From assembly GCA_001771185.1 (NCBI GenBank), contig METB01000001.1, positions 631,200-695,199 of the forward strand: DNA of 64,000 bases. The letters are read 5' to 3'. The position numbers and the translations under genes were made by a program. Under the pieces are notes generated by a model. The model made no database searches and was not told the DNA's origin. It was given only the letters and a program-made list of their open reading frames with translations. Source of the DNA: a candidate division Kazan bacterium RIFCSPHIGHO2_01_FULL_44_14 (GTDB lineage Bacteria; Patescibacteriota; Kazan-3B-28). Shown one piece after another: positions 1,464 to 64,000 of this stretch (position 1 is its first letter; every line of letters starts with the position of its first letter).

Positions 1464-4400
1464 ATGAAGTTTAAGCCGATTGATTCACGAGTGGACTTCG
1501 CCAAACAAGAGGAAGAAGTTCTTGAATTTTGGGATAAGGAAAAAATCTTTACCAAAAGTTTAGAGCAACGGCATGGCGGAAAGCGCTATGTCTTTTTTGA
1601 AGGCCCGCCCACAGCCAACGCTAAGCCGGGTTTGCATCACGCATTAGCACGTTATTTTAAGGATTTGTTTCCGCGGTACAAAACCATGCGAGGGTATTTA
1701 GTGGAGCGTAAGGCCGGTTGGGATACGCATGGGTTGCCAGTTGAAATTGCAGTGGAAAAAGAATTGAAGCTAACTTCTAAACCCGATATTGAAAAGTATG
1801 GGGTGGCTAAATTTAATGCCAAGGCCAAGGAAAGTGTGTGGCAACATAAAGAGGATTGGGAAAAATTCACCAAGCGGAGTGGTTTTTGGTTGGATATGGA
1901 GCACCCGTATATTACCTATGAACCAGATTATATTGAGTCGGTTTGGTGGATTTTGAAGCAGGCCTGGGATAAAGGACTGATTTATCAAGGTCATCGAGTG
2001 GTGCCACGGTGTCCGAGATGCGGAACGGCGTTATCAAGTCATGAAGTGGCACAGGGATACAGGGAGGTGAGCGAAACTTCACTTTATGTGAAGTTTCGAG
2101 TTAAAGAAGCAGGTAGCCCCTCCCAACTACGCCAAGGCTTCGATGGACAGGCGGTACCTCGGGGTACCAGTAAAAATACATTTTTACTAGCATGGACGAC
2201 GACACCGTGGACACTACCTGGCAATGTGGCATTGGCAATAGGAAATGAAATTTCCTATTGCAAGTTAAAAGTGACTCAACGGAGTCATCCTGAGCGAAGC
2301 GATAGCGTAGTCGAAGGATCTAGCAACCAGATTCCTCGACATGCTCGGAATGACAATACAGAGTACCTGATTTTGGCGGAGGAGTTGATTGAGAAAGTTT
2401 TTGGTAAAGAGAAAGTTGAAATTGTTGATAGATTTCAAGGGAAGGATTTGGTTGGATTCGAGTATGAACCACTATTCCCAGGAGCGGTACCAGACAATAC
2501 ACCAAATTATCAAAATGCGTTTAAGGTTTATCCAGCCGGTTTTGTAACTACGGATGAAGGGACTGGCGTGGTGCATACGGCGGTGATGTATGGTGAGGAC
2601 GACTATCAACTAGGCGAAAAAGTTGGGTTACCCAAGTTCCATACTGTGCTTCCAGACGGCACTTTTGGCCCAACTGTAGGAGAATGGGCAGGGAAGTTTG
2701 TGAAGGACTCTGAAGTTGAGAAAGGAATTATTGAGTATCTCCGGGAAAATCAGTCATTATTTAAAGAAGAAAAGTTTACGCATGATTATCCGTTCTGTTG
2801 GCGGTGCGAAACACCATTGTTGTATTACGCGGCCGAGAGTTGGTTTATTGCGATGTCTAAATTACGCGACCAATTAATTAAAAACAACGATGCGGTTGAA
2901 TGGACTCCATCTCATATTAAAGATGGTCGGTTTGGTGAATGGCTCCGAGAAGTGAAGGACTGGGGGATTTCTCGCGAGCGATACTGGGGAACCCCTTTGC
3001 CATTTTGGATGCCTGTCCGTACCACTGACGGCGAAGCCGCTGTGGGCGGAAGTGATGATAAACCGATGTGTGTAGGTTCGTTTTCGGAACTTAATAAACT
3101 AGCCAAAGACCCAAGTTTGGTTGGAACCAATTTTGATCCGCATAAACCATTTGTGGACGAAATCGTATTAGTGAAAGATGGTAAGGAATTCAAAAGGGTT
3201 CCGGAAGTTTTGGATGTCTGGTTTGATTCTGGTGCGATGCCCTTTGCCCAATGGCATTATCCAATCGAGAACGCTGAAAAAATTGATCGGGGCGAGGCCT
3301 TCCCAGCTGATTTTATTTCTGAAGCAATCGATCAAACCCGGGGCTGGTTTTATACCATGTTGGCGATTTCGACTATGTTGGGTAAGCCAGCGCCATATAA
3401 GCAGGTGATTTGTTTGGGACATATTCTGGATAAACATGGCAAGAAGATGAGTAAGTCCAAAGGGAACACAGTCGACCCGTGGACGATTTTTGATAAATAC
3501 GGTTCAGATGCATTGAGATGGTATCTGTACACCATTAATCAACCAGGGTTGTCCAAGAACTTTGACGAAGAAGGAGTGAAAACAGTGGTTAGAAGGTTAA
3601 TGCTAACCATCTGGAACACTTATTCATTTTTTGTAACTTATGCCAACATTGACGGATTTATTCCTGACTTGAATGTGAAAGTTAAACCAACGGAAGTGTT
3701 GGATAAATGGATTTGGACTCGTCACGACCAATTGATTGAACATGTAACATATCATTTGGACCGATACGAGCCAATGGCGGCCTGCCAAGCGATAGAAAGT
3801 TTTGTTGATGATTTGTCGAATTGGTATATTCGCAGAAACCGTCGTCGGTTTTGGCGGACAGGTGATGCTAGTCAGACCAAAGACAAACAACAGGCCTATG
3901 TCGTGCTTCATGCCGTGCTGAAGGATTTAACTAAACTAATGGCCCCGTTTATGCCGTTTTTGAGTGAAGCAATTTATGCCAATCTAAAAACAGACGAGGA
4001 ACCAATCTCGGTCCACCTGACGACTTGGCCAAGGGCGGGCAAGGTGGATGAGTTAATCTTGGAAGAAATGAGTCAAGTCCGGCACTGGGTGGAATTGGGA
4101 CTAAATCAAAGAGAAGTGGCCGGAATTAAGGTGCGTCAACCATTGGCGAGGTTTTCAATTAAAGCCAAACAGTTAGATGGTGATTTGATTGCTATTTTGT
4201 GCGAGGAATTAAATGTAAAAGAAATTGTGTTAGGGGATAACATTGAACAGTTGGATACGAAGTTGACTGATAAACTACTGGAAGAGGGATTGGTGCGGGA
4301 ATTAGTTCGGGCAATTCAGGTCTTACGCAAAGAGTCCGGATTTGAAATTCAGGACCACATTTCGATTACTTGGCAAACCGAAAGTAAAGCACTTCGTCAA

Positions 4401-4529
4401 GCGATTAAGGTCTGGGGCGAATATATTCAGTCCGAAACCCTAGCCGATATTTTAATCCAGAGCGAAAACGATGGTTATGAGGTCAAAATAGAAGACAATG
4501 TGGTAAAGTTGGTGGTAGAGAAGAAATAA
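1464..4529 (+). CDS. ileS: Isoleucyl-tRNA synthetase
   Basis: A 1021-aa class I aaRS with the HIGH-like motif PPTANAKPGLHHA and the KMSKS motif (KMSKSKGN). It carries two in-frame repeat-element insertions at 2111-2164 and 2284-2354. Confidence 0.95.
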   Translation: MKFKPIDSRVDFAKQEEEVLEFWDKEKIFTKSLEQRHGGKRYVFFEGPPTANAKPGLHHALARYFKDLFPRYKTMRGYLVERKAGWDTHGLPVEIAVEKELKLTSKPDIEKYGVAKFNAKAKESVWQHKEDWEKFTKRSGFWLDMEHPYITYEPDYIESVWWILKQAWDKGLIYQGHRVVPRCPRCGTALSSHEVAQGYREVSETSLYVKFRVKEAGSPSQLRQGFDGQAVPRGTSKNTFLLAWTTTPWTLPGNVALAIGNEISYCKLKVTQRSHPERSDSVVEGSSNQIPRHARNDNTEYLILAEELIEKVFGKEKVEIVDRFQGKDLVGFEYEPLFPGAVPDNTPNYQNAFKVYPAGFVTTDEGTGVVHTAVMYGEDDYQLGEKVGLPKFHTVLPDGTFGPTVGEWAGKFVKDSEVEKGIIEYLRENQSLFKEEKFTHDYPFCWRCETPLLYYAAESWFIAMSKLRDQLIKNNDAVEWTPSHIKDGRFGEWLREVKDWGISRERYWGTPLPFWMPVRTTDGEAAVGGSDDKPMCVGSFSELNKLAKDPSLVGTNFDPHKPFVDEIVLVKDGKEFKRVPEVLDVWFDSGAMPFAQWHYPIENAEKIDRGEAFPADFISEAIDQTRGWFYTMLAISTMLGKPAPYKQVICLGHILDKHGKKMSKSKGNTVDPWTIFDKYGSDALRWYLYTINQPGLSKNFDEEGVKTVVRRLMLTIWNTYSFFVTYANIDGFIPDLNVKVKPTEVLDKWIWTRHDQLIEHVTYHLDRYEPMAACQAIESFVDDLSNWYIRRNRRRFWRTGDASQTKDKQQAYVVLHAVLKDLTKLMAPFMPFLSEAIYANLKTDEEPISVHLTTWPRAGKVDELILEEMSQVRHWVELGLNQREVAGIKVRQPLARFSIKAKQLDGDLIAILCEELNVKEIVLGDNIEQLDTKLTDKLLEEGLVRELVRAIQVLRKESGFEIQDHISITWQTESKALRQAIKVWGEYIQSETLADILIQSENDGYEVKIEDNVVKLVVEKK
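2111..2164. repeat. B-family repeat copy inserted in-frame in ileS (encodes [18 protein letters not shown])
   Basis: About 49/52 nt are identical to 19352-19403 inside serS. Confidence 0.8.
2284..2354. repeat. A-family inverted-repeat mini-element (gtcatcctgagcgaag...ggaatgac) inserted in-frame in ileS
   Basis: It has the GTCATYC/GGAATGAC termini and the ggatct/agattcc core shared with at least 10 other copies. Confidence 0.75.
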
Positions 4530-5038
4530 TGAATCGTTTTGTTTCAAATCTCATCTTAGGTTTGTTTGTGGTGGCGTTGGTAATTGTTTATGGTGTTAGT
4601 AAACAGCCGGCAGTTTTTTCGTTGGGTCATTTACTAACGAATCAAATAGTACAGCCACCAGTTGACCAGCAAATGGCAATTCGGTTGCCGGGGGGGCAGG
4701 TGATTCAAGCACGGGTAGTAGACACCCCCGAAGCCAGGGCCCAGGGATTGTCGGGAGTGGAATCCGTTCCAGCCGATACCGGAATGTTGTTTGTGTTTCA
4801 AGATGATGGGACACAGGGAATTTGGATGAAGGGGATGAAAATCCCGTTGGATATATTGTGGCTTGATGGTCAGGGACAGGTGGTACATATTGTTCAAAAT
4901 GCTCCAATTCCAGATGATGAACAGACCGTACTTCCTATATATGAAAGCAACCAACCAGCCAGATATGTGCTGGAATTGGCGGCGGGAACAGTAGAAGCGA
5001 CTGGTTTAGAGGCAGGGCAGGTGGTCGGATTATCTTGA
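4529..5038 (+). CDS. DUF192 family protein
   Basis: GMLFVFQDDG...IWMKGMKIPLDILWLD matches the DUF192 pattern. Its start overlaps the ileS stop. Confidence 0.6.
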   Translation: MNRFVSNLILGLFVVALVIVYGVSKQPAVFSLGHLLTNQIVQPPVDQQMAIRLPGGQVIQARVVDTPEARAQGLSGVESVPADTGMLFVFQDDGTQGIWMKGMKIPLDILWLDGQGQVVHIVQNAPIPDDEQTVLPIYESNQPARYVLELAAGTVEATGLEAGQVVGLS

Positions 5039-10561: not shown

Positions 10562-11635
10562 ATGACTTGGTTATCAATCTTAGTGTTTATTTTTATATTT
10601 GGTCTGTTTGTGTTCGTGCACGAATTGGGTCATTTTTGGGCAGCAATTAAATCGGGGGTGAAAGTAGAGGAATTCGGGTTTGGTCTTCCGCCTCGGATTT
10701 GGGGAACAAAAAAGCACGGAGTAATTTATTCAATTAACTGGATTCCCTTTGGTGGATTTGTTCGAATTAAAGGTGAGGGAGTTGACGGTGGGCATGATCC
10801 TGATTCTCTAAAGAATAAATCATATGGAGTTCGGATTTTGGTGACAGTTGGTGGGGTATTGATGAATTTTCTCACGGCTTTTGGGCTGTTGATGTTTGGT
10901 TTTTGGTTGGGGATGCCACCAATTGTGTCTGATGCTAGTCGATATGCGATAGATAATTCTCAATTAGAGTCCCAGATTTTAATTGTGCATGTTGATCGGG
11001 GCACTCCGGCTGAATTGGCGGGGATAAAGGCCGGGGATATTGTGGTAACGGCGGATGGGATAGCGCTTAAAACCGTGCCAGAATTACAGCAAGCCATTGC
11101 CGGTAAACGCCAAGTGAATATGGTAGTCCGGCGCGATCAAGAACGATTAACTTTACCCGTAACAACCATTCGGGAGGAGAATCGGGAAGTAATCGGGGTA
11201 TTGGCGGATGAGTTGGTTTCAAAAGTGCACTACACTTGGTGGAAGGTACCTTATTTTGCGATTCTAGAGACCGGCCAGTTGATTAAAAATATCGCAATCG
11301 GAATTGTAGATTTTTTGGCAAGTTTAGTAAGCACTGGCAGTTTGCCGGATTCAGTGGCTGGACCAGTCGGAATCGCTAAAATCACGGCCCAGGCCGTGGC
11401 ATTAGGATTTTTATCAGTGTTGCAGTTCGCTATCTTTTTAAATGTTAATTTAGGATTAATTAACATTGTTCCATTTCCAGCCCTTGATGGTGGTCGGTTG
11501 TTATTTTTGTTAATCGAGATATCACGCGGTGGCAGACGGATCAAACCAGAAATCGAGAACGCAATTCATAGTTTTGGGTTTTTACTCCTGTTGGCCCTTA
11601 TCTTTGTAGTGACGTACCGTGATATCTTCAAGTAA
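10562..11635 (+). CDS. rseP: RIP metalloprotease RseP (site-2 protease)
   Basis: It has the HELGHFWAA zinc motif, a PDZ domain, and multiple TM segments. Confidence 0.9.
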   Translation: MTWLSILVFIFIFGLFVFVHELGHFWAAIKSGVKVEEFGFGLPPRIWGTKKHGVIYSINWIPFGGFVRIKGEGVDGGHDPDSLKNKSYGVRILVTVGGVLMNFLTAFGLLMFGFWLGMPPIVSDASRYAIDNSQLESQILIVHVDRGTPAELAGIKAGDIVVTADGIALKTVPELQQAIAGKRQVNMVVRRDQERLTLPVTTIREENREVIGVLADELVSKVHYTWWKVPYFAILETGQLIKNIAIGIVDFLASLVSTGSLPDSVAGPVGIAKITAQAVALGFLSVLQFAIFLNVNLGLINIVPFPALDGGRLLFLLIEISRGGRRIKPEIENAIHSFGFLLLLALIFVVTYRDIFK

Positions 11636-13328: not shown

Positions 13329-13395
13329 TGTCATTCTGAACGAAGTGAAGAATCTAGTCCCGGCAGGCCGGGACGTTTTCTTTCTGCCACCATCC
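13329..13395. repeat. A-family half-element (gtcattctgaacgaagtgaagaatctag...)
   Basis: It shares a 5' terminus with the copy inside the RT gene (52019). Confidence 0.6.
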
Positions 13396-16365: not shown

Positions 16366-16752
16366 ATGGGAAAAAGGAAAATAGTTGTCGTTGATGATGA
16401 AGAGTTTGTCAGGATGTCGGTATTCAGAAATTTGGAAGCCGAGTTTGATTCGGATATTGTCTTGGCGTTAGAGCCAAAAGGAAGTGCCAGACATACAGCA
16501 CTTTTGATTATCGATGAGGGCCCAGACGTAATCGTCATGGACCTTGGATTCAATCACCTATCATTTGATGGGGGGGATGTGATTCGAGCTCTTCGTGAAA
16601 ATGGATTTGCTGGTGAGATTATTCTGTTCTCGGGATTTATTCCGGAGGACAAGAAAACGTCCCTTGAGGCGTGCGAAGTTCTGGCTTATATCCAAAAGCC
16701 AAACCTCAATGTTCTCAAGGAGACGCTAAAAACAGCCCTTCGACTCGGCTAA
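16366..16752 (+). CDS. Stand-alone response-regulator receiver (CheY-like) domain protein
   Basis: It has the acidic pocket VVVDDEE, the phospho-acceptor Asp in IVMDLGF, and the conserved Lys in YIQKP. Confidence 0.7.
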   Translation: MGKRKIVVVDDEEFVRMSVFRNLEAEFDSDIVLALEPKGSARHTALLIIDEGPDVIVMDLGFNHLSFDGGDVIRALRENGFAGEIILFSGFIPEDKKTSLEACEVLAYIQKPNLNVLKETLKTALRLG

Positions 16753-18268: not shown

Positions 18269-19606
18269 ATGGATTTAAAGCAATTAGAGGACAATCTGTA
18301 CACTTGGCAGTCAGCCCTGGAGAGACGAGGGGCGGAAGTGGATTTGAACAAAGTATTAGAGGCGCATAAGTGTTATCTTGAGTTATTGCAAAAGTCCGAG
18401 GAATTGAGAGCTAGACGCAACACGGCGGCTCGGGCCCAAGATATTGAAGCAGGTAAGCCCTACTCCGCTGAAGCTACGAAGGGTCTGCGACAGGCAAAGG
18501 GTTTATTGAAAGAAATGGAAGACGAGTTGGCTACAGCTAAAGCAGAGTTGGACGAATTAGTGGCCGGAATTCCCAATCTACCTAGTGGTGATATTCCTGA
18601 CGGAGGGGAAGAAAATAATAAGGTCTTGGGAGTGGTGGGGAAACCGCGAACCATCGATAATCCCAAAGACCACATTGAATTAGGTGAAGGCCTGGGGATT
18701 TTGGATATTGAGCGAGGGACCAAGGTCTCGGGCGCTCGGTTTTATTATTTGAAAAATCAGGCAGTCGAATTGGAATTTGCGATTGTTAGATGGTTGATGG
18801 ACTTATTGAAAGAGAAAGGATTTGAACTGCTGATAGGTCCAGAACTTTTAAATGAAAAGGCGATGTTGGCAGGCGGATATTTGGGTAAAGCTGTGGACGA
18901 AGTTTACAAAACTCAAGATGAATTATATTTGATTGGTACGGCCGAACAAAGTATTTTGGCTTATCATTTGGATGAAATTGTTCCCGTTCCCAAACGATAT
19001 GCTAGTTTTTCAACTTGCTTTCGGAGAGAAGCTGGTAGTTACGGAAAAGATGTGAAAGGAATTATTCGAACGCATCAGTTCGATAAAATCGAAATGTTTT
19101 CGTTTGTGGCGCCGAGTATGTCGGCTCGGGAACATGAATTTTTAGTATCAATTCAAGAAGAAATTTTGCAAGGACTGGAAATTCCATATCAGAAAGTGCT
19201 ACTGGCGGCGGGGGACTTGAGTATGGCTTCGGCCAAGACGATTGATTTGGAAAGTTGGTTGCCGTCACAGAATCGGCATCGGGAAACCCATAGTTGTAGT
19301 AATTGCACTGATTGGCAGGCGAGACGGGCGAAGATTCGTTACAGGGAGCAAGGTAGTCCCTCCCAACTACGCCAAGGCTTCGATGGGCAGGCGGTTCCTC
19401 GGGATAACATAAAAAATGACTTCCTGACGAATGGAGGGGGTACTACCGGTAACAAGCCAGAGTTGGTTCATACGCTAAACGGTACAGCGGTAGCGATTGG
19501 GCGTATACTTGTGGCTATACTGGAAAACCATCAACAGATAGATGGGAGCGTGATTGTCCCTAAAGTTCTGCATCCGTATTTGAGTTTTAAGGAAATTAGA
19601 CCATGA
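18269..19606 (+). CDS. serS: Seryl-tRNA synthetase
   Basis: It has the N-terminal coiled-coil arm and class II motifs (FRREAGS..., [22 protein letters not shown]). An in-frame repeat insertion lies at 19352-19403. Confidence 0.9.
19352..19403. repeat. B-family repeat copy inserted in-frame in serS (encodes [18 protein letters not shown])
   Basis: It is near-identical to 2111-2164 in ileS. Confidence 0.8.
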
Positions 19607-22352: not shown

Positions 22353-22469
22353 TCACCTAAATTTCTAATTTCTAATTTCGAATCAAATTCCAATGACTGA
22401 ATGTTTCAAAATTAAGACATTAGGTCATTCACTCAAAATTCAAAATTCATCATTCAAAATTATATTTAT
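22353..22469. repeat. C-family hairpin element, copy 1, flanked by an 18-bp direct repeat of a palindrome (cctcttaagataagaggg at 22335-22352 and 22470-22487)
   Basis: Core caatgactgaatgtttcaaaattaagacattaggtcattc, with atttctaatttcgaatcaa on the 5' side and aaaattcaaaattcatcattcaaaatt on the 3' side. Confidence 0.75.
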
Positions 22470-23296: not shown

Positions 23297-23453
23297 GTCA
23301 TCCTGAGCGAGGTGTAAGCCGAGTCGAAGGATCTAGGCGTAGCCGTCTATAAGAAATTCGCTATCGCCCCAACGGGGGCCCTTTGGGGCTAGATTCTTCA
23401 TCCCGGCAAGCCGGGATTCAGAATGACAGAAGGTAGGCGGGGGCCGGAATGAC
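23297..23453. repeat. A-family mini-element(s) (gtcatcctgagcgag ... gaatgac ... ggaatgac)
   Basis: It carries the family termini and core. Confidence 0.7.
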
Positions 23454-34562: not shown

Positions 34563-34642
34563 GAATTTCTAATTTCTAATTTCGAATCAAATCCCAATGA
34601 CTGAATGCTCCAAAATTAAGACATTAGGTAATTCATTCGACC
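34563..34642. repeat. C-family hairpin element, copy 2
   Basis: atttctaatttcgaatcaaatcccaatgactgaatgctccaaaattaagacattaggtaattc. Confidence 0.7.
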
Positions 34643-34671
34643 CATTCCCGCTTTGTCTTATATTTTTTTGT

Positions 34672-41608: not shown

Positions 41609-42052
41609 GTGGAGGAATATGTGGATAATGTTTTTATCGGTGAATATACGCATGTACTAGACAGCAAGGGCCGACTTGCTATTCCTGTTAAGTTTAAAAA
41701 ATTGTTAACCAAAGGTGCGGTAGTGACCAAGGGGTTAGATGGTTGTCTTTTCCTTTATACCGAATCCGAATGGGCGAAGTTGGTGGCTAAGCTTAACCAG
41801 ATGCCCATTTCTCAAGGTAATGCGCGGGCATTCGCTCGGTTGATGTTAGCGGGAGCCATGCCGGTAACCTTGGACGCACAGAACCGCATCAATTTACCAA
41901 ATTATTTGATTGCCTTTGCTGGATTGAAAACTACTGCCGTGTTGGCTGGTCTAATGAATCGTCTGGAAATCTGGGACACCAAGAAGTGGGAGACCTACAA
42001 AAAGAAGACCGAGCCAGAGTCCGAGAAAATCGCCGAGCAGTTGTTTATTTAA
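41609..42052 (+). CDS. mraZ: Transcriptional regulator MraZ
   Basis: It has duplicated SpoVT/AbrB-like halves (DSKGRLAIP...). The SD ggagg lies 5 nt upstream. Confidence 0.9.
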   Translation: MEEYVDNVFIGEYTHVLDSKGRLAIPVKFKKLLTKGAVVTKGLDGCLFLYTESEWAKLVAKLNQMPISQGNARAFARLMLAGAMPVTLDAQNRINLPNYLIAFAGLKTTAVLAGLMNRLEIWDTKKWETYKKKTEPESEKIAEQLFI

Positions 42053-42053
42053 A

Positions 42054-42177
42054 AATCTTAATCCGTGAGTAATCCGAATTTATTTCGGATTACGAACCCC
42101 TCGAAAAGGGGAGGCAGTCCCGGCAAGCCGGGATGTCGGAAGGGGAAAAACCTGAATAATGGTTTTGCCCCTCCGAG
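42054..42177 (+). repeat. H-family structured element, copy 1 (between mraZ and rsmH)
   Basis: Stems gtaatccgaa/ttcggattac, tcccggc/gccggga and ggggaaaaacc/ggttttgcccc. Copy 2 keeps the same stems with different sequence (compensatory changes). Confidence 0.7.
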
Positions 42178-42336
42178 GATAGTTTAAAAATTAATTCCCG
42201 TTTATGTGGCCGATAACTTAACACAATTAGTTATCTAGCTATTATCCGCAACTTTTCACCTCCAACAACTTAGTTTACCCACCCCTGGGCAAACAAAAAA
42301 ACAATCTGAGTTGTCGGCCACATAAAAATATTAACA

Positions 42337-42459
42337 ATCTTAATAAGTGAGTAGCCCGAATTTATTTCGGACTACGAACTCCTCGAAAAGGGGAGGCAGG
42401 TCCGATTTATCGGACTGTCGGAAGGGGAAAAACCTGAATAATGGTTTTGCCCCTCCGAG
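42337..42459 (+). repeat. H-family structured element, copy 2 (ends 8 nt before the rsmH ATG)
   Basis: gtagcccgaa/ttcggactac, gtccga/tcggac, ggggaaaaacc/ggttttgcccc. A 16-bp inverted repeat (42203-42218 and 42309-42324) lies between the two copies. Confidence 0.7.
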
Positions 42460-46262: not shown

Positions 46263-46516
46263 GTCCAAGCGCAAGCTGGCGCTTGACCCAGCACAGACGA
46301 GCGCCACATCGCGCTCGACCGATGGGCACTTTGGCTTGTCAAAGTGCCATAAATCGCTTTCGCAGTCGCTCTCGTTATTCATCACAACTAATTCCCTTAC
46401 TGCTCTCGCCAAACTCCCCCTCGACTACGCTCGGGGTCAAACAGTTGGCTTCGCAACGGGAATTAGTTGGATTCAGGACATTCGAGCTCCAATGCTCGGT
46501 TAAGAAGGAATTGTCT
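46263..46516 (+). repeat. D-family structured 3'-end element, copy 4 (after ftsI; diverged subtype)
   Basis: tccaagcgcaagc...gcttgacc; H1 ggcactttg-gcttgt-caaagtgcc; ttattcatcac; cagttggcttcgcaacggg; aattagttggattcaggacattcgagctccaatgctcgg. Confidence 0.75.
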
Positions 46517-48971: not shown

Positions 48972-49195
48972 AAATGAGCGCAGGGTGGCGCTCAACCCAC
49001 CGTTACTTTCCTCTTGGCGAAAGTAACCAAAGCCGTCTCCGCAGTCGCCCTCTTTATTCATCACAACTAATTCCCTTACTGCTCTCGCCAAACTTGCCCC
49101 GACCTAAAGGTCGGGTCTTCGAACAGTTGGCTTCGCAACGGAAATTAGTTGGATTCAGAACACTCGGGCTCCAATGCTCGATTAAGAGGGGATAG
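48972..49195 (+). repeat. D-family structured 3'-end element, copy 5 (after mraY; same subtype as copy 4)
   Basis: H1 gttactttcc-tcttggc-gaaagtaac. The remaining ~130 nt are about 85 % identical to copy 4. Confidence 0.75.
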
Positions 49196-49250
49196 TAACT
49201 ACTCGATGGGTCCCAATAAGATTGATACCCCGAATCCGCCAACTGGCGGA

Positions 49251-49340
49251 CTAATTTCGAATCAAACTCGAATGACTGAATGCTTCAAAATTAAGACATT
49301 AAGATATTTACTCAAAATTCAAAATTTGTCATTCAAAATT
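49251..49340. repeat. C-family hairpin element, copy 4
   Basis: ctaatttcgaatcaaactcgaatgactgaatgcttcaaaattaagacattaag...caaaatttgtcattcaaaatt. Confidence 0.7.
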
Positions 49341-49438
49341 ACTTATACTCCAATATTCAGTATCTTCTCCCCCCTAAGATAAGGGGAGGTAGGGTGGGGT
49401 CATATGGGTGCAAATTGGCTCTGGGGGAGGGTTTTGGC

Positions 49439-49467
49439 TTGACGGTAGGTGGGAATAGGAGTATAAT
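49439..49467 (+). promoter_or_regulatory. Promoter for the DGR target gene (TTGACG-17-TATAAT)
   Basis: -35, a 17-nt spacer, and a perfect -10. A homologous promoter is at 63862-63890. Confidence 0.6.
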
Positions 49468-49571
49468 CAAGGTGTAAGGTGGGCCTGTAATTTTCAGGGA
49501 TATCAACCATCAGCACCTTGAAGACTAGTTCTGCAAAACTGGCCAGCAAGGCGAACCAGAAGGAGACTAGG

Positions 49572-50624
49572 ATGAACATCCTGGCCGCTATTAGTGTCGT
49601 ATTGAAATTTCTCGAAGCTTTGATTGTTGCTAATCAAGACAAAGATGGTCATTTCTCCCGGGTGAGTGAGTTGCTTACACAGCTCAAGTCGCTCGGCGAA
49701 GAGCCCCTCTCTCGTCTGATGCAGCGGATTAATGTTGTTGGCTTGGTGCTGAGCCGGGTCAGCATCCCCAGTTACGAAGAGTTTCAGGGGTTCGTGGACA
49801 CACAGGTTCTTTCCTGGCTACCGAAGCCGTCCCGTACACCAACCCGACTCAAGGGCAATTGGCAGAACGAACGACTGAAGGTGCAGAAGAAAGCCTGGGC
49901 CGTAATCGGGGTCGAGCTTCCGCAGGATCTTTGTGATGAGTTCGTTGCAATCCTAAACAAGTGTGGCGCCGAATTGGTAGCGACCCTCGAGGCGTATGGC
50001 TTCATGTTTGTTATCACGCCGGATATCACTTGGACCGTCAACACTTGGCCTGCCAAGTGGGTTAAGCTCAACAACTGGTTCTGGCAGATTCTGGGTAGCG
50101 GACGTCTCCTCAAAGAGGATGACACCGTAATCCAGCACTGCAAGCTCCAACGCCAGGTCCTGCTAATCGATACACGCAAGAAGCCTGTCTATGCTGACGG
50201 TCGTCAGTGTTGGGACAAGGATGTGTTCATGGAGGCTCTAATCGGGTGGCTTCAAGACCAAAAGAAACTGCCTATCGACAGCACCTGCGGTCGTGGTAGT
50301 CGCTTCCGCTTAAGCCGCAACGACTATACAAAGGTTGTGGCTCCAGCTTTATTAGAGGCGCTTCAACAGCTCGGTTGTCCGGCTCAAGCCGTTCGGTTGG
50401 AATACTGTCCGGAGCATTCTGCTTTCTGCCAGCTGTTTGATGCCCCCCGCAAGGATAGTGGAAAGACAACCACTTGGCTGTGGTTCCAAGAGCGACTGGA
50501 CTCGTCCGGGCACTCGCTGCATAGCGGGGTCTCCGGCAGCGGTGGTCTGGCGTTCGTCAGTTTCAACAATTCCGACTACCGCTGGAACAACGTATCTGCT
50601 TCGCTCGTGGCAGTTATGGTCTAG
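49572..50624 (+). CDS. DGR variable (target) protein; the C-terminal ~41 codons are the variable repeat
   Basis: The SD aaggag lies 8 nt before the ATG. The 3' 123 nt (50493-50615) match the downstream TR except at TR adenines. The C-terminus is ...WLWFQERLDSSGHSLHSGVSGSGGLAFVSFNNSDYRWNNVSASLVAV. The TTG at 49518 is an alternative start. Confidence 0.7.
   Translation: MNILAAISVVLKFLEALIVANQDKDGHFSRVSELLTQLKSLGEEPLSRLMQRINVVGLVLSRVSIPSYEEFQGFVDTQVLSWLPKPSRTPTRLKGNWQNERLKVQKKAWAVIGVELPQDLCDEFVAILNKCGAELVATLEAYGFMFVITPDITWTVNTWPAKWVKLNNWFWQILGSGRLLKEDDTVIQHCKLQRQVLLIDTRKKPVYADGRQCWDKDVFMEALIGWLQDQKKLPIDSTCGRGSRFRLSRNDYTKVVAPALLEALQQLGCPAQAVRLEYCPEHSAFCQLFDAPRKDSGKTTTWLWFQERLDSSGHSLHSGVSGSGGLAFVSFNNSDYRWNNVSASLVAVMV
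50493..50615 (+). repeat. DGR variable repeat (VR)
   Basis: Of 123 nt, 112 are identical to TR. All 11 mismatches sit at positions where TR has A (VR has C, T or G). Confidence 0.85.
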
Positions 50625-50668
50625 GCCATTTTGGGCGTTTGGATTTTTTGGAATTTGGTATCATCCCC

Positions 50669-50698
50669 GAGCGGGGTTGCTTGCAACCCCGCTCTTTT
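50669..50698 (+). terminator. GC-rich hairpin directly downstream of VR (gagcggggtt-gcttgc-aaccccgctc + TTTT); a DGR target-recognition hairpin and/or terminator
   Basis: A 10-bp perfect stem lies 54 nt after the end of VR, with a T-tract. Confidence 0.7.
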
Positions 50699-50922
50699 CA
50701 TATACTGATGTAGATGCGGCAGTGAATAGATACTTTGGTATCTATCGTCGCTCTCCCTTTTGGGACCAGCCAGAGTTTATAAACTCAAGTAGTTTATAAA
50801 GAGTGCTAAACCTAAAAGAGAAACTGCGTATCTGCTACTCAGTCTCATGAAGTGAGGCGCATAAAATACAGGCAGAACATCTTGTTTGTTTGCCAGTGCT
50901 AAAGGATGGTGGCAGATACTAA

Positions 50923-51045
50923 CGACTGGACTCGTCCGGGCACTCGCTGAATAGCGGGGACTCCGACAACGGTGGTCTGGCGAACGTCAATTACAACAAT
51001 TCCGACAACCGCTGGAACAACGAATCTGCTTCGCTCGTGGAAGTT
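50923..51045 (+). repeat. DGR template repeat (TR)
   Basis: It is the non-coding cognate of VR, has the same length, and is adenine-rich at the mismatch positions. Confidence 0.85.
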
Positions 51046-51065
51046 TCTCGCATTAGGTAGGTAAA

Positions 51066-51089
51066 GGGGGCGGGGGTCACCTCGCCCCC
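51066..51089. terminator. Hairpin gggggcg-ggggtcacct-cgccccc overlapping the avd stop codon
   Basis: A 7-bp GC stem lies between TR and the convergent avd gene. Confidence 0.5.
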
Positions 51090-51382
51090 TTAGTCGTAGT
51101 TTTAATCCAACCTCCCAGCATTTTTCCTATTTCTTGTAGCTTAGTTTGGAGGGTTAGATAATACTTTTCGTTAAGTGCCTGCACCTCATAACCCAAGCGG
51201 ATTTGTAGCTTCACTAAATCCAGCAAGGCACTCGCTCTAAATAGTATCTCCACCCTGGAGCGTTCAGGAGTGGAGGAGGCCGTCAGGACACATTCCACTA
51301 ACTCCAATATCTTCGCTTGGGTCATCTGGCCCAGACTGTATCGCTCAATTTTGGGATATTTCAAAAGATGTCCATGAAACAA
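51077..51382 (-). CDS. avd: DGR accessory variability determinant (Avd-like four-helix-bundle protein)
   Basis: It is ~100 aa and basic, with a C-terminus ...EIGKMLGGWIKTTTKGAR that resembles Bordetella phage bAvd ...EVGRILGSWIARVNRKGQ. It lies between TR and the RT but on the opposite strand. Confidence 0.65.
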   Translation of the reverse strand: MFHGHLLKYPKIERYSLGQMTQAKILELVECVLTASSTPERSRVEILFRASALLDLVKLQIRLGYEVQALNEKYYLTLQTKLQEIGKMLGGWIKTTTKGAR

Positions 51383-51503
51383 TTTGTAAAACTCGAAGAG
51401 CTGATAAACGATTGGGATTTCACCAAATCCGTCCGGGGGGGGGCTTAATAGGAAGGTTATTTTCCATACTGGTGTTTTTGAAGAAATTATTTCGTTAGAG
51501 AAT

Positions 51504-52616
51504 TTGTTTTTGGCTTGGAGGGAGTTTCGGAAAGGTAAACGAGGTAAGTTAGATGTCCAAGCGTTCGAGCTTCATCTTGAAGATAACATATTTGCTCTTT
51601 ACGAGGAGTTAGCGGGTGGAGATTATTGCCACGGTGGCTATCATCAGTTTCGCATCTCCGACCCGAAATCTCGCTTGATTAGTAAGGCGTTGGTTCGGGA
51701 TAGGTTGCTCCACCACGCTATCTGCCGAATCTTGTATCCGGTTTTTGATCGAACCTTTATCTTTGATAGCTACTCTTGTCGAAAGAATAAAGGGACGCAT
51801 AAAGGATTCTTTCGGTTAGCCGAGATGGCTCGAAAAGTCAGTAGAAACTATACTGGTCCGTGCTGGGCGTTGAAGTTGGATATTCGGAAGTTTTTCGACA
51901 GTGTCGATCATAGTGTGTTGATGGGGCTGTTAAGAGGGCGCATTGCCGACGAGCGACTGCTGGGGTTATTGGGGAATATTATTGGTAGCTTCCCTATGCG
52001 TCATTCTGAACGCAGTGAAGAATCTAGCGGTAGCGTTCTGCTGTACAGCAGAACTAGATCCTTCGCTAACGCTCAGGATGACAGGAGGAGAGTTCAGGAT
52101 GACGAGAGGAGAGTTAAGGATGACAAAGGAGCGGGCGGGGATGACGAAGGTGGCAAGGGGATGCCATTGGGGAATCTGACCTCACAATTATTTGCCAATA
52201 TCTATCTGGATCCATTAGATAAGTTTGCGAAACATCACTTAAGAGCTAAATATTATCTTCGCTATGCCGATGACTTTATTTTCTTGGCCGATAACCCAGA
52301 CGAACTAATGGGCTATTTTGTGGAGGTAAATCAGTTTTTGAAAATCAAGCTAAAGCTTAATCTTCATCCAAATAAAATCTCTCTCCGAAAATTGGACTGG
52401 GGAATTGACTATGTTGGGTATGTGGCATTGCCACATTACGCTGTTCCCAGAAGCAAAACGGTTACCCGGATTGTTAAAAAGATTCGTCGACTTGTAGTGA
52501 TAGGTGACGAAGCAACTTTGACTAAAGCAATGCCGTCATATTTAGGGTATCTTGAGCATACTAGTAGCTACCGAGTGAGGCGACGGTTAGAGGGAGTAGT
52601 CGAGAGGATACCATAA
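51504..52616 (+). CDS. DGR reverse transcriptase
   Basis: It has RT motifs ...LKLDIRKFFDSVDH..., the DGR-specific PLGNLTSQLFANIYL (LGxxxSQ in place of the group II QGxxxSP), and YADDFIFLAD. The conserved N-terminal motif FEEIISLENLFLAWREFRKGKR begins upstream at ~51477, where no ATG/GTG/TTG is in frame. An in-frame A-family repeat insertion lies at 52016-52150. Confidence 0.85.
   Translation: MFLAWREFRKGKRGKLDVQAFELHLEDNIFALYEELAGGDYCHGGYHQFRISDPKSRLISKALVRDRLLHHAICRILYPVFDRTFIFDSYSCRKNKGTHKGFFRLAEMARKVSRNYTGPCWALKLDIRKFFDSVDHSVLMGLLRGRIADERLLGLLGNIIGSFPMRHSERSEESSGSVLLYSRTRSFANAQDDRRRVQDDERRVKDDKGAGGDDEGGKGMPLGNLTSQLFANIYLDPLDKFAKHHLRAKYYLRYADDFIFLADNPDELMGYFVEVNQFLKIKLKLNLHPNKISLRKLDWGIDYVGYVALPHYAVPRSKTVTRIVKKIRRLVVIGDEATLTKAMPSYLGYLEHTSSYRVRRRLEGVVERIP
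52016..52150. repeat. A-family mini-element inserted in-frame in the DGR RT (encodes RHSERSEESSGSVLLYSRTRSFANAQDDRRRVQDDERRVKDDKGAGGDDEGG)
   Basis: gtcattctgaacgcagtgaagaatctag ... tcaggatgacagg, then a 4x tandem aggatgac tail. Its 5' part is near-identical to 13329-13360. Confidence 0.75.
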
Positions 52617-52620
52617 TACC

Positions 52621-52723
52621 AAATTTCTAATTTCGAATTTCTAATCAAATCTAAATGACTGAATGTCTCAAAATTAAGATATTAGGTCATTCATTTAAAA
52701 TTCAAAATTTGTCATTCAAAATT
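52621..52723. repeat. C-family hairpin element, copy 5 (after the RT)
   Basis: aaatttctaatttcgaatttctaatcaaatctaaatgactgaatgtctcaaaattaagatattaggtcattc... Confidence 0.7.
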
Positions 52724-52848
52724 ACTTGCCAGGATACCATCACTTTTAACTTTTAACTGACTCCACGATTTCCCTTGCCTGGGAGCGGGTTTTATGGTAT
52801 GACAGGGGTATCTTGCAGTATGTTCTTTAACAGGGAGGTTTTAAAACG

Positions 52849-59148: not shown

Positions 59149-60184
59149 ACTGCCGGACAGCGACTTGTTGTATGTTGGTTCTCGGATGCCAGCAGACCGT
59201 CAATTAGTGGAAACGGCCGGTTTAGTGTTTCAGCCGATTACGACTGGTAAGTTGCGCCGGTATTGGTCGTGGAAAAATTTTATTGATGGATTCAAATTTT
59301 TGACCGGACTAACTCAAGCCAAACGAATAGTGAGAGATTTTCAGCCGGACGTAGTGTTTGCCAAGGGTGGTTATGTGGCATTACCAGTGGTTTTGGCGGC
59401 ACATCAACAAAAGATTCCAGTAGTAATCCATGAATCCGACAGCCGGTTAGGACTGGCTAACCGGTTGGCCATTCCCTCGGCGACTAAAGTAGCAGTTGCG
59501 TTTCCGATTGAGGAATATTTTAAGTGTCAGCCCGGTTTGGGAAAATATCGGGCCAAGTTTATTTATACCGGGTTGCCATTGCCTGATTCTTTGATGATTG
59601 GAGAGGACAAGTCGTTGTTTGCTAATTCTAAACCCACTATTCTAGTAACCGGTGGATCGCAAGGAGCTCGGGCAATTAATCAGGCCGTCTGGAACGGCTT
59701 ACCCGAACTGTTGGCTAAGTATAATGTGGTTCATCAGGTTGGAACGGGGGGGGTGGCCGAAGCCGATCAGAGGCGGCAGGCGCTCCCGGCCGGGCTAGAT
59801 GCGAGTTATTTGCCATTCGATTTTGATGCCGAATTTTATCAACGAGCATTGCGGTCGGCGGACTTGGTGGTAGCCCGGGCCGGTTCGATGGTGTTTGAAT
59901 TGCAGGCATTAGGGAAACCAGCGATTTTAATCCCATTGCCGCATTCGGCGAACGATCACCAGCATCGCAATGCTAAATTTTTAGTAGAGCATCAGGCAGC
60001 GGTTGCCATTAATCAGCGTGATTTAACGGCTGATGGACTGTTGGCCGTGATTGAACAAGTCATGAGTGATGTTAAGTTAAGGCAGGAGTTATCGGATAAT
60101 TTAGCAGAACTGGGCAAGATTAATTTGGCAGCCAGCCGAGTATTGGCGGATCTAGTTATTAAGATTGGACGGCATGAAATATAA
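59063..60184 (+). CDS. murG: UDP-GlcNAc:lipid I N-acetylglucosaminyltransferase
   Basis: It has the GGGTGGHVMP G-loop and a GT28 C-terminal domain. Confidence 0.85.
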   Translation: MKMKILLVGGGTGGHVMPTLAVAAQLKDKLPDSDLLYVGSRMPADRQLVETAGLVFQPITTGKLRRYWSWKNFIDGFKFLTGLTQAKRIVRDFQPDVVFAKGGYVALPVVLAAHQQKIPVVIHESDSRLGLANRLAIPSATKVAVAFPIEEYFKCQPGLGKYRAKFIYTGLPLPDSLMIGEDKSLFANSKPTILVTGGSQGARAINQAVWNGLPELLAKYNVVHQVGTGGVAEADQRRQALPAGLDASYLPFDFDAEFYQRALRSADLVVARAGSMVFELQALGKPAILIPLPHSANDHQHRNAKFLVEHQAAVAINQRDLTADGLLAVIEQVMSDVKLRQELSDNLAELGKINLAASRVLADLVIKIGRHEI

Positions 60185-62458: not shown

Positions 62459-62537
62459 ATTTCTAATTTTTAATTTCGAATTTCGAATCAAATCCCAATG
62501 ACTGAATGTTTCAAAATTAAGATATTAGGTCATTGAT
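62459..62537. repeat. C-family hairpin element, copy 6 (after murC)
   Basis: atttctaatttttaatttcgaatttcgaatcaaatcccaatgactgaatgtttcaaaattaagatattaggtcattg. Confidence 0.7.
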
Positions 62538-62545
62538 TCAAAGTA

Positions 62546-63421
62546 ATGTTAAAGAGGGGGTTTTCTACTAATTGGTTTACTAAAAAAAAGCGGTCAGCAC
62601 CGTCTCGGGTGGTGTTGTTTAACCAGCAACAAAAATATAATCAGCGAATGCGCGGTAATCTTTTGCGCAAAACCAGCGTCCAATTAACGGCGGCGAAACT
62701 AAGTCGACTGCGAACTCCTGCTAGGTGGTGGTCAAAGGTTCTGGTGGTGTTGGGACTGGGCTTGGTGGGATACCTGCTGTTTGGGACTAATTTATTTGTG
62801 TTGGATACTTTGCGGATTACTGGTACACACTTAACCGAACCCGATGCGATTCAGGCCGTATTGTTCCCGCGGGGGTTTACCAAAATGAATGCATTAACTT
62901 GGTGGGAAAGCCGAGCCAAACACAAAGTCGAATCATTGCCTCAAGTTCAGTTGGTTCACTTTGTGAAAAATTTTATTTCTGACACGTTGACAGTCGAAGT
63001 AACTGAACAGCAAATGGCGGTGGTGTGGCAGACGGCCGGGGAAAAGTTCTTGATTAATCGTCACGGAGTGGCATATGACCGAGCGGAAGAGGGGAACCCA
63101 CTGCTGACAATCGAAGATCTGAAAAATATTCCGATTAGTTTGAATCAGCGGATTGTAACATCGGACTTTATTGATTTTGTGACTAGTTTTGCGGCTAATC
63201 TTCCGCGCAAAACCAATTTGGTGATTCGGCGAATTACCGTGCCAGAGACCACTTTTGAAGTAGAAATGGAAACTAGCGAGGGTTGGAGAATTATTTTAGA
63301 TACGACTGGTAGTTATGACGAACAGCTCAATAATTTGGTCAGAGTATTACAGGAGATGGGGGATAGAAAGCCCAGAGAATATGTGGATTTGAGGGTGGGG
63401 AAGAAAGTGTTTTATAAATGA
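62546..63421 (+). CDS. ftsQ: Cell division protein FtsQ-like (POTRA domain)
   Basis: It has a basic N-terminus, a single TM, and a POTRA-like region, and it sits at the dcw position after murC. The start is uncertain. Confidence 0.65.
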   Translation: MLKRGFSTNWFTKKKRSAPSRVVLFNQQQKYNQRMRGNLLRKTSVQLTAAKLSRLRTPARWWSKVLVVLGLGLVGYLLFGTNLFVLDTLRITGTHLTEPDAIQAVLFPRGFTKMNALTWWESRAKHKVESLPQVQLVHFVKNFISDTLTVEVTEQQMAVVWQTAGEKFLINRHGVAYDRAEEGNPLLTIEDLKNIPISLNQRIVTSDFIDFVTSFAANLPRKTNLVIRRITVPETTFEVEMETSEGWRIILDTTGSYDEQLNNLVRVLQEMGDRKPREYVDLRVGKKVFYK

Positions 63422-63815: not shown

Positions 63816-63861
63816 CAAAGGGCCGGTAAAGAGGAAAGGCGCTTCTAGAGCCACTTTTGGC

Positions 63862-63890
63862 TTGACAGTGAATCAGATTAGAAGTATAGT
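63862..63890 (+). promoter_or_regulatory. Promoter (TTGACA-17-TATAGT) homologous to the DGR target promoter
   Basis: ttttggcttgacagtg...gtatagt...gtgtaaggtg aligns with 49431-49490. Confidence 0.5.
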
Positions 63891-64000
63891 TAGAGTGTAA
63901 GGTGTGTAGCTTGAAAACACCTGATAGAGCAGTCCCCGCCGTCTGGCTGGGAGCTGGTTTTGCCTACTAGCCACCGATTCTGTTGTCAACAGGACGGATT

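Follow-up and report, generated by a model that had tools for sequence, protein, structure and literature searches.

A G/C tract shared by the overlapping avd and reverse transcriptase genes as a candidate phase-variable switch of a diversity-generating retroelement in a candidate division Kazan bacterium

The DNA stretch analysed here, a window of 64,000 nucleotides (64 kb) from contig METB01000001.1 of a candidate division Kazan bacterium, contains a diversity-generating retroelement (DGR) whose two enzyme genes, avd and the gene of the reverse transcriptase (RT), are oriented head to head, overlap each other and share a homopolymeric run of nine G/C pairs, which at this length places both of them out of frame. 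We regard it as practically certain that the element is a chromosomal DGR of the B3 type known from the Candidate Phyla Radiation (CPR), with a variable repeat (VR) that has been written by adenine mutagenesis from a template repeat (TR). From the comparison of sequences we further propose, with a probability of about 60%, that the shared tract acts as a phase-variable switch of the Avd and RT reading frames and that the window population is in the OFF state. Slipped-strand changes of the tract length would alter the frames of avd and RT together and would thus turn both proteins, and hence mutagenic retrohoming, on or off in a heritable way, and the VR of the window population would be frozen during the OFF phase. 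The same principle would, on balance, extend to a large subgroup of the CPR DGRs, in which one hypermutable tract consisting of poly-G/C, (CA)n or (GA)n probably switches the hypermutator reversibly on and off.

The gene avd is located on the minus strand (51077-51467) and the RT gene on the plus strand (51368-52616), and the two genes start inside each other, with ATG codons at 51467 and 51368, respectively, resulting in a head-to-head overlap of 100 nt. The shared tract inside this overlap (51435-51443) reads as G9 on the RT strand and as C9 on the avd strand, represents the longest G/C run of the entire window, and encodes Pro-Pro-Pro in the leader of Avd and Gly-Gly(-Gly) in that of the RT. 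As for other G runs of the window, a G8 run lies in frame inside murG (59746-59753), and G7 runs are present at 4690-4696 and 16570-16576. Reading from the avd start codon (51467-51465), the leader opens with MENNLPIKPPP and runs out of frame at the tract, with a stop codon of the ATG frame at 51422-51420 and the conserved body (51433-51077) in the +1 frame. The RT leader opens at the ATGs at 51368 and 51374 with MSMKQFVKLEELINDWDFTKSVRGG and likewise runs out of frame, with a stop of the ATG frame at 51446-51448 and the body (about 51444-52616) in the +1 frame. At a tract length of nine bases, both conserved bodies are therefore +1 out of frame with their ATGs, by the same amount, and a tract of eight or eleven bases would restore both frames at once, the removal of a single base yielding an Avd of 129 amino acids and an RT of 415 amino acids.

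No in-frame ATG, GTG or TTG codon is available ahead of the conserved N-terminus of either protein. The conserved N-terminal sequence of the RT (HTGVFEEIISLENL), which aligns with the Bordetella enzyme bRT from residue 5 onward, lies upstream of the first TTG of the gene, and the match of Avd to the NCBIfam profile DivGenRetAVD extends to profile position 2 only if the sequence is read upstream of any canonical start. Several alternative starts were considered and rejected, partly by comparison with locus L004, which represents the same cassette, with a target protein 64% identical to that of the window, between uvrA and uvrC of another Patescibacteria genome. The TTG at 51382 would be the only canonical start for Avd, but the profile match reaches 17 positions further upstream; moreover, this TTG is not kept in L004, and a TGA occurs there just upstream in the body frame. 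A start of Avd at an ATA was rejected along with it. The stretch upstream of the TTG at 51382 shows many synonymous differences between the window and L004. A start of the RT at the ATT at 51459, which is kept in five relatives and is the called start in L004, is unnecessary, since this codon is internal in the in-frame relatives, whose RT begins with an ATG on the far side of the tract. The cassette had been called complete in a preliminary description of this DNA, which goes too far for its present state, with both enzyme genes out of frame at the tract. Intact, expressible genes for RT and Avd are accordingly not found at G9/C9, a result that concerns the present activity of the element and not its identity. 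In loci of this kind, gene callers shorten both genes, giving Avd proteins of 95, 82 or 79 amino acids and RTs of 368 or 370 amino acids, and owing to this truncation neither the overlap nor the tract can be seen in the databases.

A view on the related loci shows that the arrangement is widespread. Among 160 loci fetched by their RT, all 148 Avd hits are encoded on the strand opposite to the RT gene and immediately upstream of it. In 37 distinct related loci, the corresponding position is occupied by a run of C6 to C14, which lies a few codons past the ATG and is separated from the following Avd body by 11-15 nt. Within 857 kb of sequence from related loci, G/C runs reach a length of 8 nt or more 44 times, and 35 of these runs are located at the avd/RT junction. 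If the nearest ATG is taken as the start of Avd, nine of the 37 loci are in frame, 16 need the removal and 11 the addition of one nucleotide, and one contains no ATG; the number of in-frame loci rises to 11 if any open upstream ATG is counted (L168 and L081, listed above among those needing a removal, have an in-frame ATG further upstream). With random phasing of the tract, about one third of the loci would be expected to be in frame. In 21 of the 22 loci in which both upstream ATGs are identifiable, avd and the RT require an identical correction (none for either gene in three loci, -1 nt for both in eleven, +1 nt for both in seven; binomial P = 1.4e-9, with one third as the rate expected by chance). 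Where the tract is in frame, the RT shows the pattern M-x(7-9)-GG(G)-LN-x-H-x-IFEEI and Avd the pattern M-x(3-8)-PPP, so that both proteins are translated through the tract. In relatives without a tract, the two ATGs are placed back to back, typically with a spacing of -2 to +3 nt, and in the in-frame tract loci the genes overlap by 41-57 nt. In a neighbour-joining tree of the RTs, the loci with a tract are dispersed across roughly half of the clade.

A control is provided by a sister subclade with poly-G runs of 8, 9, 10 or 12 nt inside the RT gene itself (L034 at 4477, L054 at 1267, L115 at 4540, and L038 at 2057), which are in frame in four of four loci. These runs are located about 560-665 nt from the RT N-terminus, just before LPIGNLTSQ, in the same loop between motifs 3 and 4 that carries an insertion in the RT of the window (see below). 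Furthermore, many Avd homologues from CPR genomes begin with leaders of the type HTHTHT or RERERE, reflecting (CA)n or (GA)n repeats that take the place of the poly-C run (P0174, P0181, P0189, P0208, P0216, P0219, P0240/P0286/P0288, P0157, and P0159; loci L023 and L091). The number of these repeats differs within clusters of Avd proteins of 90% identity, and the two loci represent both states: the CA repeat of 19 nt in L023 is in frame, and that of 17 nt in its relative L091 is out of frame.

Differences in tract length are also found among very closely related sequences. The first 160 loci contain only one such case of close relatives, L070 (G12) versus L139 and L141 (G11). Better examples are provided by conspecific contigs, which were traced through the cluster members of the Avd homologues. 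At one locus from the Hainich aquifer (locus A), contigs with identical flanks carry either C8 (L173, L174), with avd and RT both in frame, or C9 (L170) and C10 (L171, L172), with both genes out of frame. At a second Hainich locus (locus B), again with identical flanks, both genes are in frame with C10 (L175) and both are out of frame with C11 (L181, 10x coverage). Related strains of a Minisyncoccia genome contain C6 with both genes in frame (L178) or C8 with both out of frame (L176/L177, on a 308-kb contig). Thus, three related lineages differ in tract length among conspecific or related contigs, and both genes switch together each time. The window population itself is uniform: six assemblies, obtained independently from different samples and with different pipelines, show 100% identity over the 3.6 kb of the cassette, G9 included, and the same truncated Avd call is found in 17 contigs. 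The VR is identical, at the level of the assembly consensus, in 11 contigs from at least five samples, no VR variant is present in the 90% protein cluster, and a collection of 15 billion proteins contained neither a VR variant nor the exact in-frame versions of Avd (129 amino acids) and RT (415 amino acids). With G9 and one and the same VR in all public assemblies, the consensus sequences give no indication that the element is currently active, and the OFF state agrees with the invariant VR and with the lack of any in-frame allele on record.

These observations would also be expected if the cassette were a dead remnant, i.e., a DGR active in the past in which one indel in a mutation-prone run has disabled both enzymes without any regulatory meaning. 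Both enzyme genes being out of frame, the invariance of the VR in all public assemblies, the lack of a recorded ON allele, and the repeat-derived insertion carried by the RT are all compatible with decay. However, apart from the tract neither avd nor the RT gene contains any stop codon or other frameshift, and the sequence comparison with L004, which carries the same G9 and the same frame defect in both genes, indicates strong purifying selection on Avd and RT although both cassettes contain the out-of-frame C9. The ratio of nonsynonymous to synonymous substitution rates (dN/dS) is 0.04 for the RT, with saturated dS, and thus far below 1; Avd shows a dN of 0.16, again with saturated dS, and the target protein a dN/dS of 0.17. 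In addition, the tract remains a pure homopolymer across loci with diverged flanks, and the related populations hold in-frame as well as out-of-frame lengths. We therefore consider a dead remnant distinctly improbable.

Several points weigh against a phase-variable switch and should be considered together. The support for it comes from assembly consensus sequences, and switching in the window population may be too rare to show at that level, all assemblies containing G9. No Shine-Dalgarno sequence precedes either the avd or the RT ATG. Part of the frame concordance between the two genes could stem from a bias toward an open, codon-aligned antisense frame. Moreover, several of the polymorphic contigs from relatives are of low coverage (1-3.5x, with one at 10x), and some of the tract lengths recorded in relatives could therefore be errors. 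As homopolymers are error-prone, the entire frame defect might in principle be an artefact of sequencing or assembly, with both genes being intact open reading frames (ORFs) in the cell. This is extremely unlikely for the window cassette: the six assemblies agree on G9 with 100% identity over 3.6 kb, 17 contigs show the same truncated Avd call, the 308-kb contig and the contig with 10x coverage are out of frame as well, and the poly-G runs inside the RT genes of the sister subclade are in frame in all four loci.

A further point against the switch is that slippage of RNA polymerase or ribosomes could provide constitutive low expression without any switching at DNA level. Runs of at least nine identical bases are classic slippage sites, and RNA-polymerase slippage, or +1/-1 ribosomal slippage involving tRNA-Pro and tRNA-Gly, on G9/C9 may act as a throttle which keeps Avd and RT at a constant low level and mutagenesis low. 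This would fit with the out-of-frame alleles being in the majority (26-28 of 37) while Avd and RT are under purifying selection, and with the retention of C9 in both the window and L004 despite saturated synonymous divergence. A programmed shift would, however, be one-directional, and the correction needed is not uniform among the relatives, occurring in both directions or not at all (-1 nt in 16 loci, +1 nt in 11, none in nine). The conspecific contigs differing in DNA tract length also indicate that switching occurs at the DNA level. We consider a pure throttle, the main rival of the switch, rather unlikely, and since slippage and DNA switching are not mutually exclusive, the two probably coexist: a phase-variable switch would likely be accompanied by a certain leakiness of expression, caused by slippage of RNA polymerase or ribosomes on the run.

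The identification of the element as a DGR follows from its repeats and proteins, and the core of the preliminary description (a DGR with adenine-specific differences between VR and TR, an RT of the DGR clade, an Avd, and a target protein with a C-type-lectin or formylglycine-generating enzyme (FGE) fold) was borne out. VR (50493-50615, plus strand) makes up the final 41 codons of the target gene and is repeated as a direct, non-coding, intergenic copy, TR (50923-51045, plus strand), the starts being 430 nt apart. The alignment reproduces the repeat of 123 nt exactly as it had been described, with 11 mismatches (91% identity), all of which are located at adenines of TR. VR contains T in six of them, G in three and C in two, and no substitution occurs at a non-adenine position of TR. 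With 30 adenines in the 123 nt of TR, the probability of placing all 11 mismatches at adenines is 3.5e-8 (hypergeometric). VR is thus rewritten from TR at adenines only. All 11 mismatches affect codon positions 1 or 2 of the target ORF (49572-50624); if TR is read in the register of VR, nine of 41 codons are AAY and 27 of the 30 adenines are at positions 1 or 2. The similarity between VR and TR breaks off sharply 5' of 50493 and 3' of 50615, and no further VR copy exists within the window. The corresponding repeats of L004 (10925-11044 versus 11345-11464) differ at 15 positions, all of them TR adenines. As a side observation, 13 of these 15 changes are A-to-G, compared with six T, three G and two C in the window, which represents an unusually skewed spectrum for a DGR. 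The genome harboring L004/L012 (JAFGPN010000015.1) also contains a second DGR of the same subclade, L013 (JAFGPN010000004.1), with a tract of C7 and both avd and RT out of frame.

The target gene (49572-50624, plus strand) is preceded by an AAGGAG Shine-Dalgarno sequence before its ATG and codes for a protein of 350 amino acids, consisting of an N-terminal helical region and a C-terminal FGE/C-type-lectin fold. This fold, which had been expected for the C-terminus, was obtained by structure prediction, and TvpA, Mtd and TaqVP are among the matches of a fold search; in the predicted structure, the VR residues are located in a ligand-binding fold of the C-type-lectin type. Only the fold search was informative, as sequence searches with the target against Pfam, NCBIfam, PHROGs and the PDB gave no matches at all. 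One relative of the target was retrieved by a word-indexed search and 136 by an exhaustive search.

The Avd protein matches the Pfam family bAvd (PF22296) with an E-value of 3.4e-15 and 56.9 bits (cut-off 40), the NCBIfam family DivGenRetAVD with 2e-19 and 69.8 bits, which is below the cut-off of 80, and phrog_3206 ("Avd protein of DGR"). The Avd-like gene reported previously is thus a genuine avd, but its strand had to be corrected to minus. The RT matches RVT_1 (8e-20) and phrog_1423 (6e-106). Its best solved relative is the Bordetella bRT (8ub7, 7e-47), with an alignment spanning residues 5-313 of bRT, whereas RTs of retrons and group II introns score only around 1e-16, which places the enzyme with the DGR RTs. 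The sequences MPLGNLTSQ and YADD are present, the motifs LGNLTSQ and YADD being those already assigned to it. An in-frame insertion of about 55 amino acids (51995-52165, plus strand) between motif 3 and LGNLTSQ appears as a gap in the alignment with bRT. It consists of a palindromic dispersed repeat (GTCATTCTGAACG.AGTGAAGAATC) and three tandem units of 21 nt, and its DNA folds with a z-score of -3.5. A 25-mer of the insertion is repeated in an intergenic region (13330-13354), related motifs are found at 2284-2323 and 23297-23336, and the RT of L004 contains a shorter insert at the same site.

With respect to transcription, the consensus promoter claimed for the target gene was recovered as a sigma-70-like promoter at 49439-49467 (plus strand; TTGACG-17-TATAAT), which agrees with the consensus in 11 of 12 positions. 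As an additional observation, this promoter and the following GTGTAAGGTG motif recur at 63855-63904 (76% identity over 50 nt with 49432-49481) as well as in L004 and may be a strong promoter that these genomes commonly use together with its transcription-start context. A GC-rich hairpin follows VR at 50669-50694 (plus strand). Its presence agrees with the preliminary description, which had assigned to it a stem of 10 bp at a distance of 54 nt; the measured stem is 11-12 bp and starts 53 nt past VR. The hairpin is followed by a T-run (TTTTC; tail TTTTCATATA), scores as an intrinsic terminator, and is kept in L004 with a compensatory change; it may serve as the target-recognition hairpin of the DGR, as the intrinsic terminator of the target gene, or as both. 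The 3' end of VR is poor in A and rich in G and C (GCTTCGCTCGTGG) and is kept in L004, making it a candidate initiation of mutagenic homing (IMH) sequence. TR also has a GC hairpin of its own downstream (51064-51091), which is located between TR and the 3' end of avd, shows covariation in L004, and may act as a bidirectional terminator for both the TR RNA and avd.

Upstream of TR, a conserved non-coding region of about 220 nt (50700-50922, plus strand) probably forms the 5' part of the TR-containing RNA. It may correspond to a structured 5' portion of the TR RNA in B3-type DGRs, in which avd is not placed upstream of TR. The aligned stretch 50700-51100, including TR and its 3' hairpin, contains six compensatory pairs in a two-sequence RNAalifold prediction; the covariation upstream of TR rests on two sequences, since nhmmer finds a clear homologue of the region only in L004 (11125-11345). 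No match to Rfam was obtained anywhere in the cassette, including 50700-50922.

The genes ftsI, murF and mraY lie upstream of the cassette, which had been described as inserted in the dcw cluster between mraY and murD. The cassette is indeed located just downstream of mraY, but it does not adjoin murD, which lies 3.8 kb beyond the DGR, with four unrelated genes in between. These genes, which separate the DGR from murD, ftsW and murG, comprise an unknown ORF and, in addition, the genes for a beta-CASP RNase, a GerMN protein and a superoxide dismutase. The cassette is flanked by two copies (49238-49341 on the left and 52621-52724 on the right, both plus strand) of an AT-rich, intergenic repeat of about 104 nt, which belongs to a family of five dispersed copies in the window, the others being located at 22359-22462, 34563-34666 and 62464-62567. 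The flanking direct repeats of 92-104 nt do not represent a target-site duplication, as they are simply two of these five copies. As an observation in its own right, recombination between copies of the repeat could explain the gain, or allow the loss, of the DGR cassette. The cassette moves as a unit, as indicated by its different genomic context in L004.

Some further repeats were noted in the window. A pair of intergenic repeats of about 175 nt with 84-88% identity lies downstream of ftsI (46341-46514) and of mraY (49020-49196); these contain spurious ORFs beginning with MARAVRELVVMN on the opposite strand and have no Rfam match. Two non-coding copies of 129 nt (42049-42177 and 42331-42459; 87% identity, 282 nt apart) are found upstream of the rsmH-like gene heading the dcw cluster. 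Finally, a segment of 88 nt is present with 81% identity at 2090-2177 and 19330-19417, within the unrelated long ORFs 1464-4529 and 18269-19606, and resembles a repeat element that has entered coding genes without disturbing their reading frame.

The DGR itself should be regarded as already known, because both its layout and its three genes are on record. The proteins of the Kazan host are deposited under the accessions OGB73841-73843, and target, Avd and RT are also deposited consecutively as proteins of an "uncultured bacterium" (AQS30098-30100 and AQS30231-30233). A full-text literature search linking Kazan to DGRs gave no result. Architecture B3, i.e., TR-(avd)-RT with avd reversed, occurs in 90% of the CPR DGRs (Wu et al., 2018, NAR, PMC5758913), and together with the 148 Avd hits analysed here this establishes the layout as the norm in the CPR. 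The window cassette resembles the B3 DGRs of CPR and DPANN genomes in gene order, strands, host group, RT clade and a target without a Pfam domain. What would be new, as far as the sequences indicate, is the tract common to both genes, their head-to-head overlap and the coupling of their frames. Neither the overlap of avd and RT nor a shared homopolymer nor frame-disrupted enzyme genes are mentioned in Wu et al. (2018), Roux et al. (2021), Paul and Eren (2022) or the results of full-text searches on this question, although an earlier description is possible.

The element shares with the DGR of Bordetella phage BPP-1 (mtd-avd-TR-brt) the adenine-specific transfer from TR to VR, an RT with the motifs (I/L)GxxxSQ and YxDD, an Avd, a target of C-type-lectin fold with a C-terminal VR, and a GC hairpin downstream of VR. 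In BPP-1, however, avd precedes TR in the same orientation, the genes are all transcribed as a single unit, avd and brt do not overlap, and there is no homopolymer; moreover, the hairpin of BPP-1 is close to the IMH, whereas that of the window is 53 nt away and resembles a terminator. Compared with TvpA of Treponema denticola and other variable proteins of the FGE type, the target shows no sequence match to the Pfam families FGE-sulfatase or DUF1566, has a different N-terminal helical region, and contains no evident signal peptide or lipobox on reading the sequence. The tract itself is reminiscent of the poly-G/C contingency genes of Campylobacter, Neisseria, Helicobacter and Bordetella, in which a G/C run of 7 to 14 nt likewise follows closely on the 5' end of the coding sequence; the length of this run varies among close relatives and sets the frame, with about one third of the alleles in frame. 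Unlike the tracts of contingency genes, the tract of the window is located in the overlap of two divergent genes, sets both frames at once, and governs a mutagenesis machine rather than a surface structure.

If the switch reading were wrong, the remainder would be an ordinary and already deposited CPR DGR. If it is correct, it would bear on the regulation of DGR mutagenesis, which is largely unknown. Many natural DGRs are classed as "inactive" in surveys without a stated cause (Roux et al., 2021), and a shared tract would provide a simple genetic explanation for such inactive elements, whose state could be read from the sequence as the tract length modulo 3. The respective lineages could diversify a ligand-binding protein at some times and preserve a successful variant of it at others, and the control of two divergent, overlapping genes by one tract would represent an unusual case of genome economy in bacteria with very small genomes.

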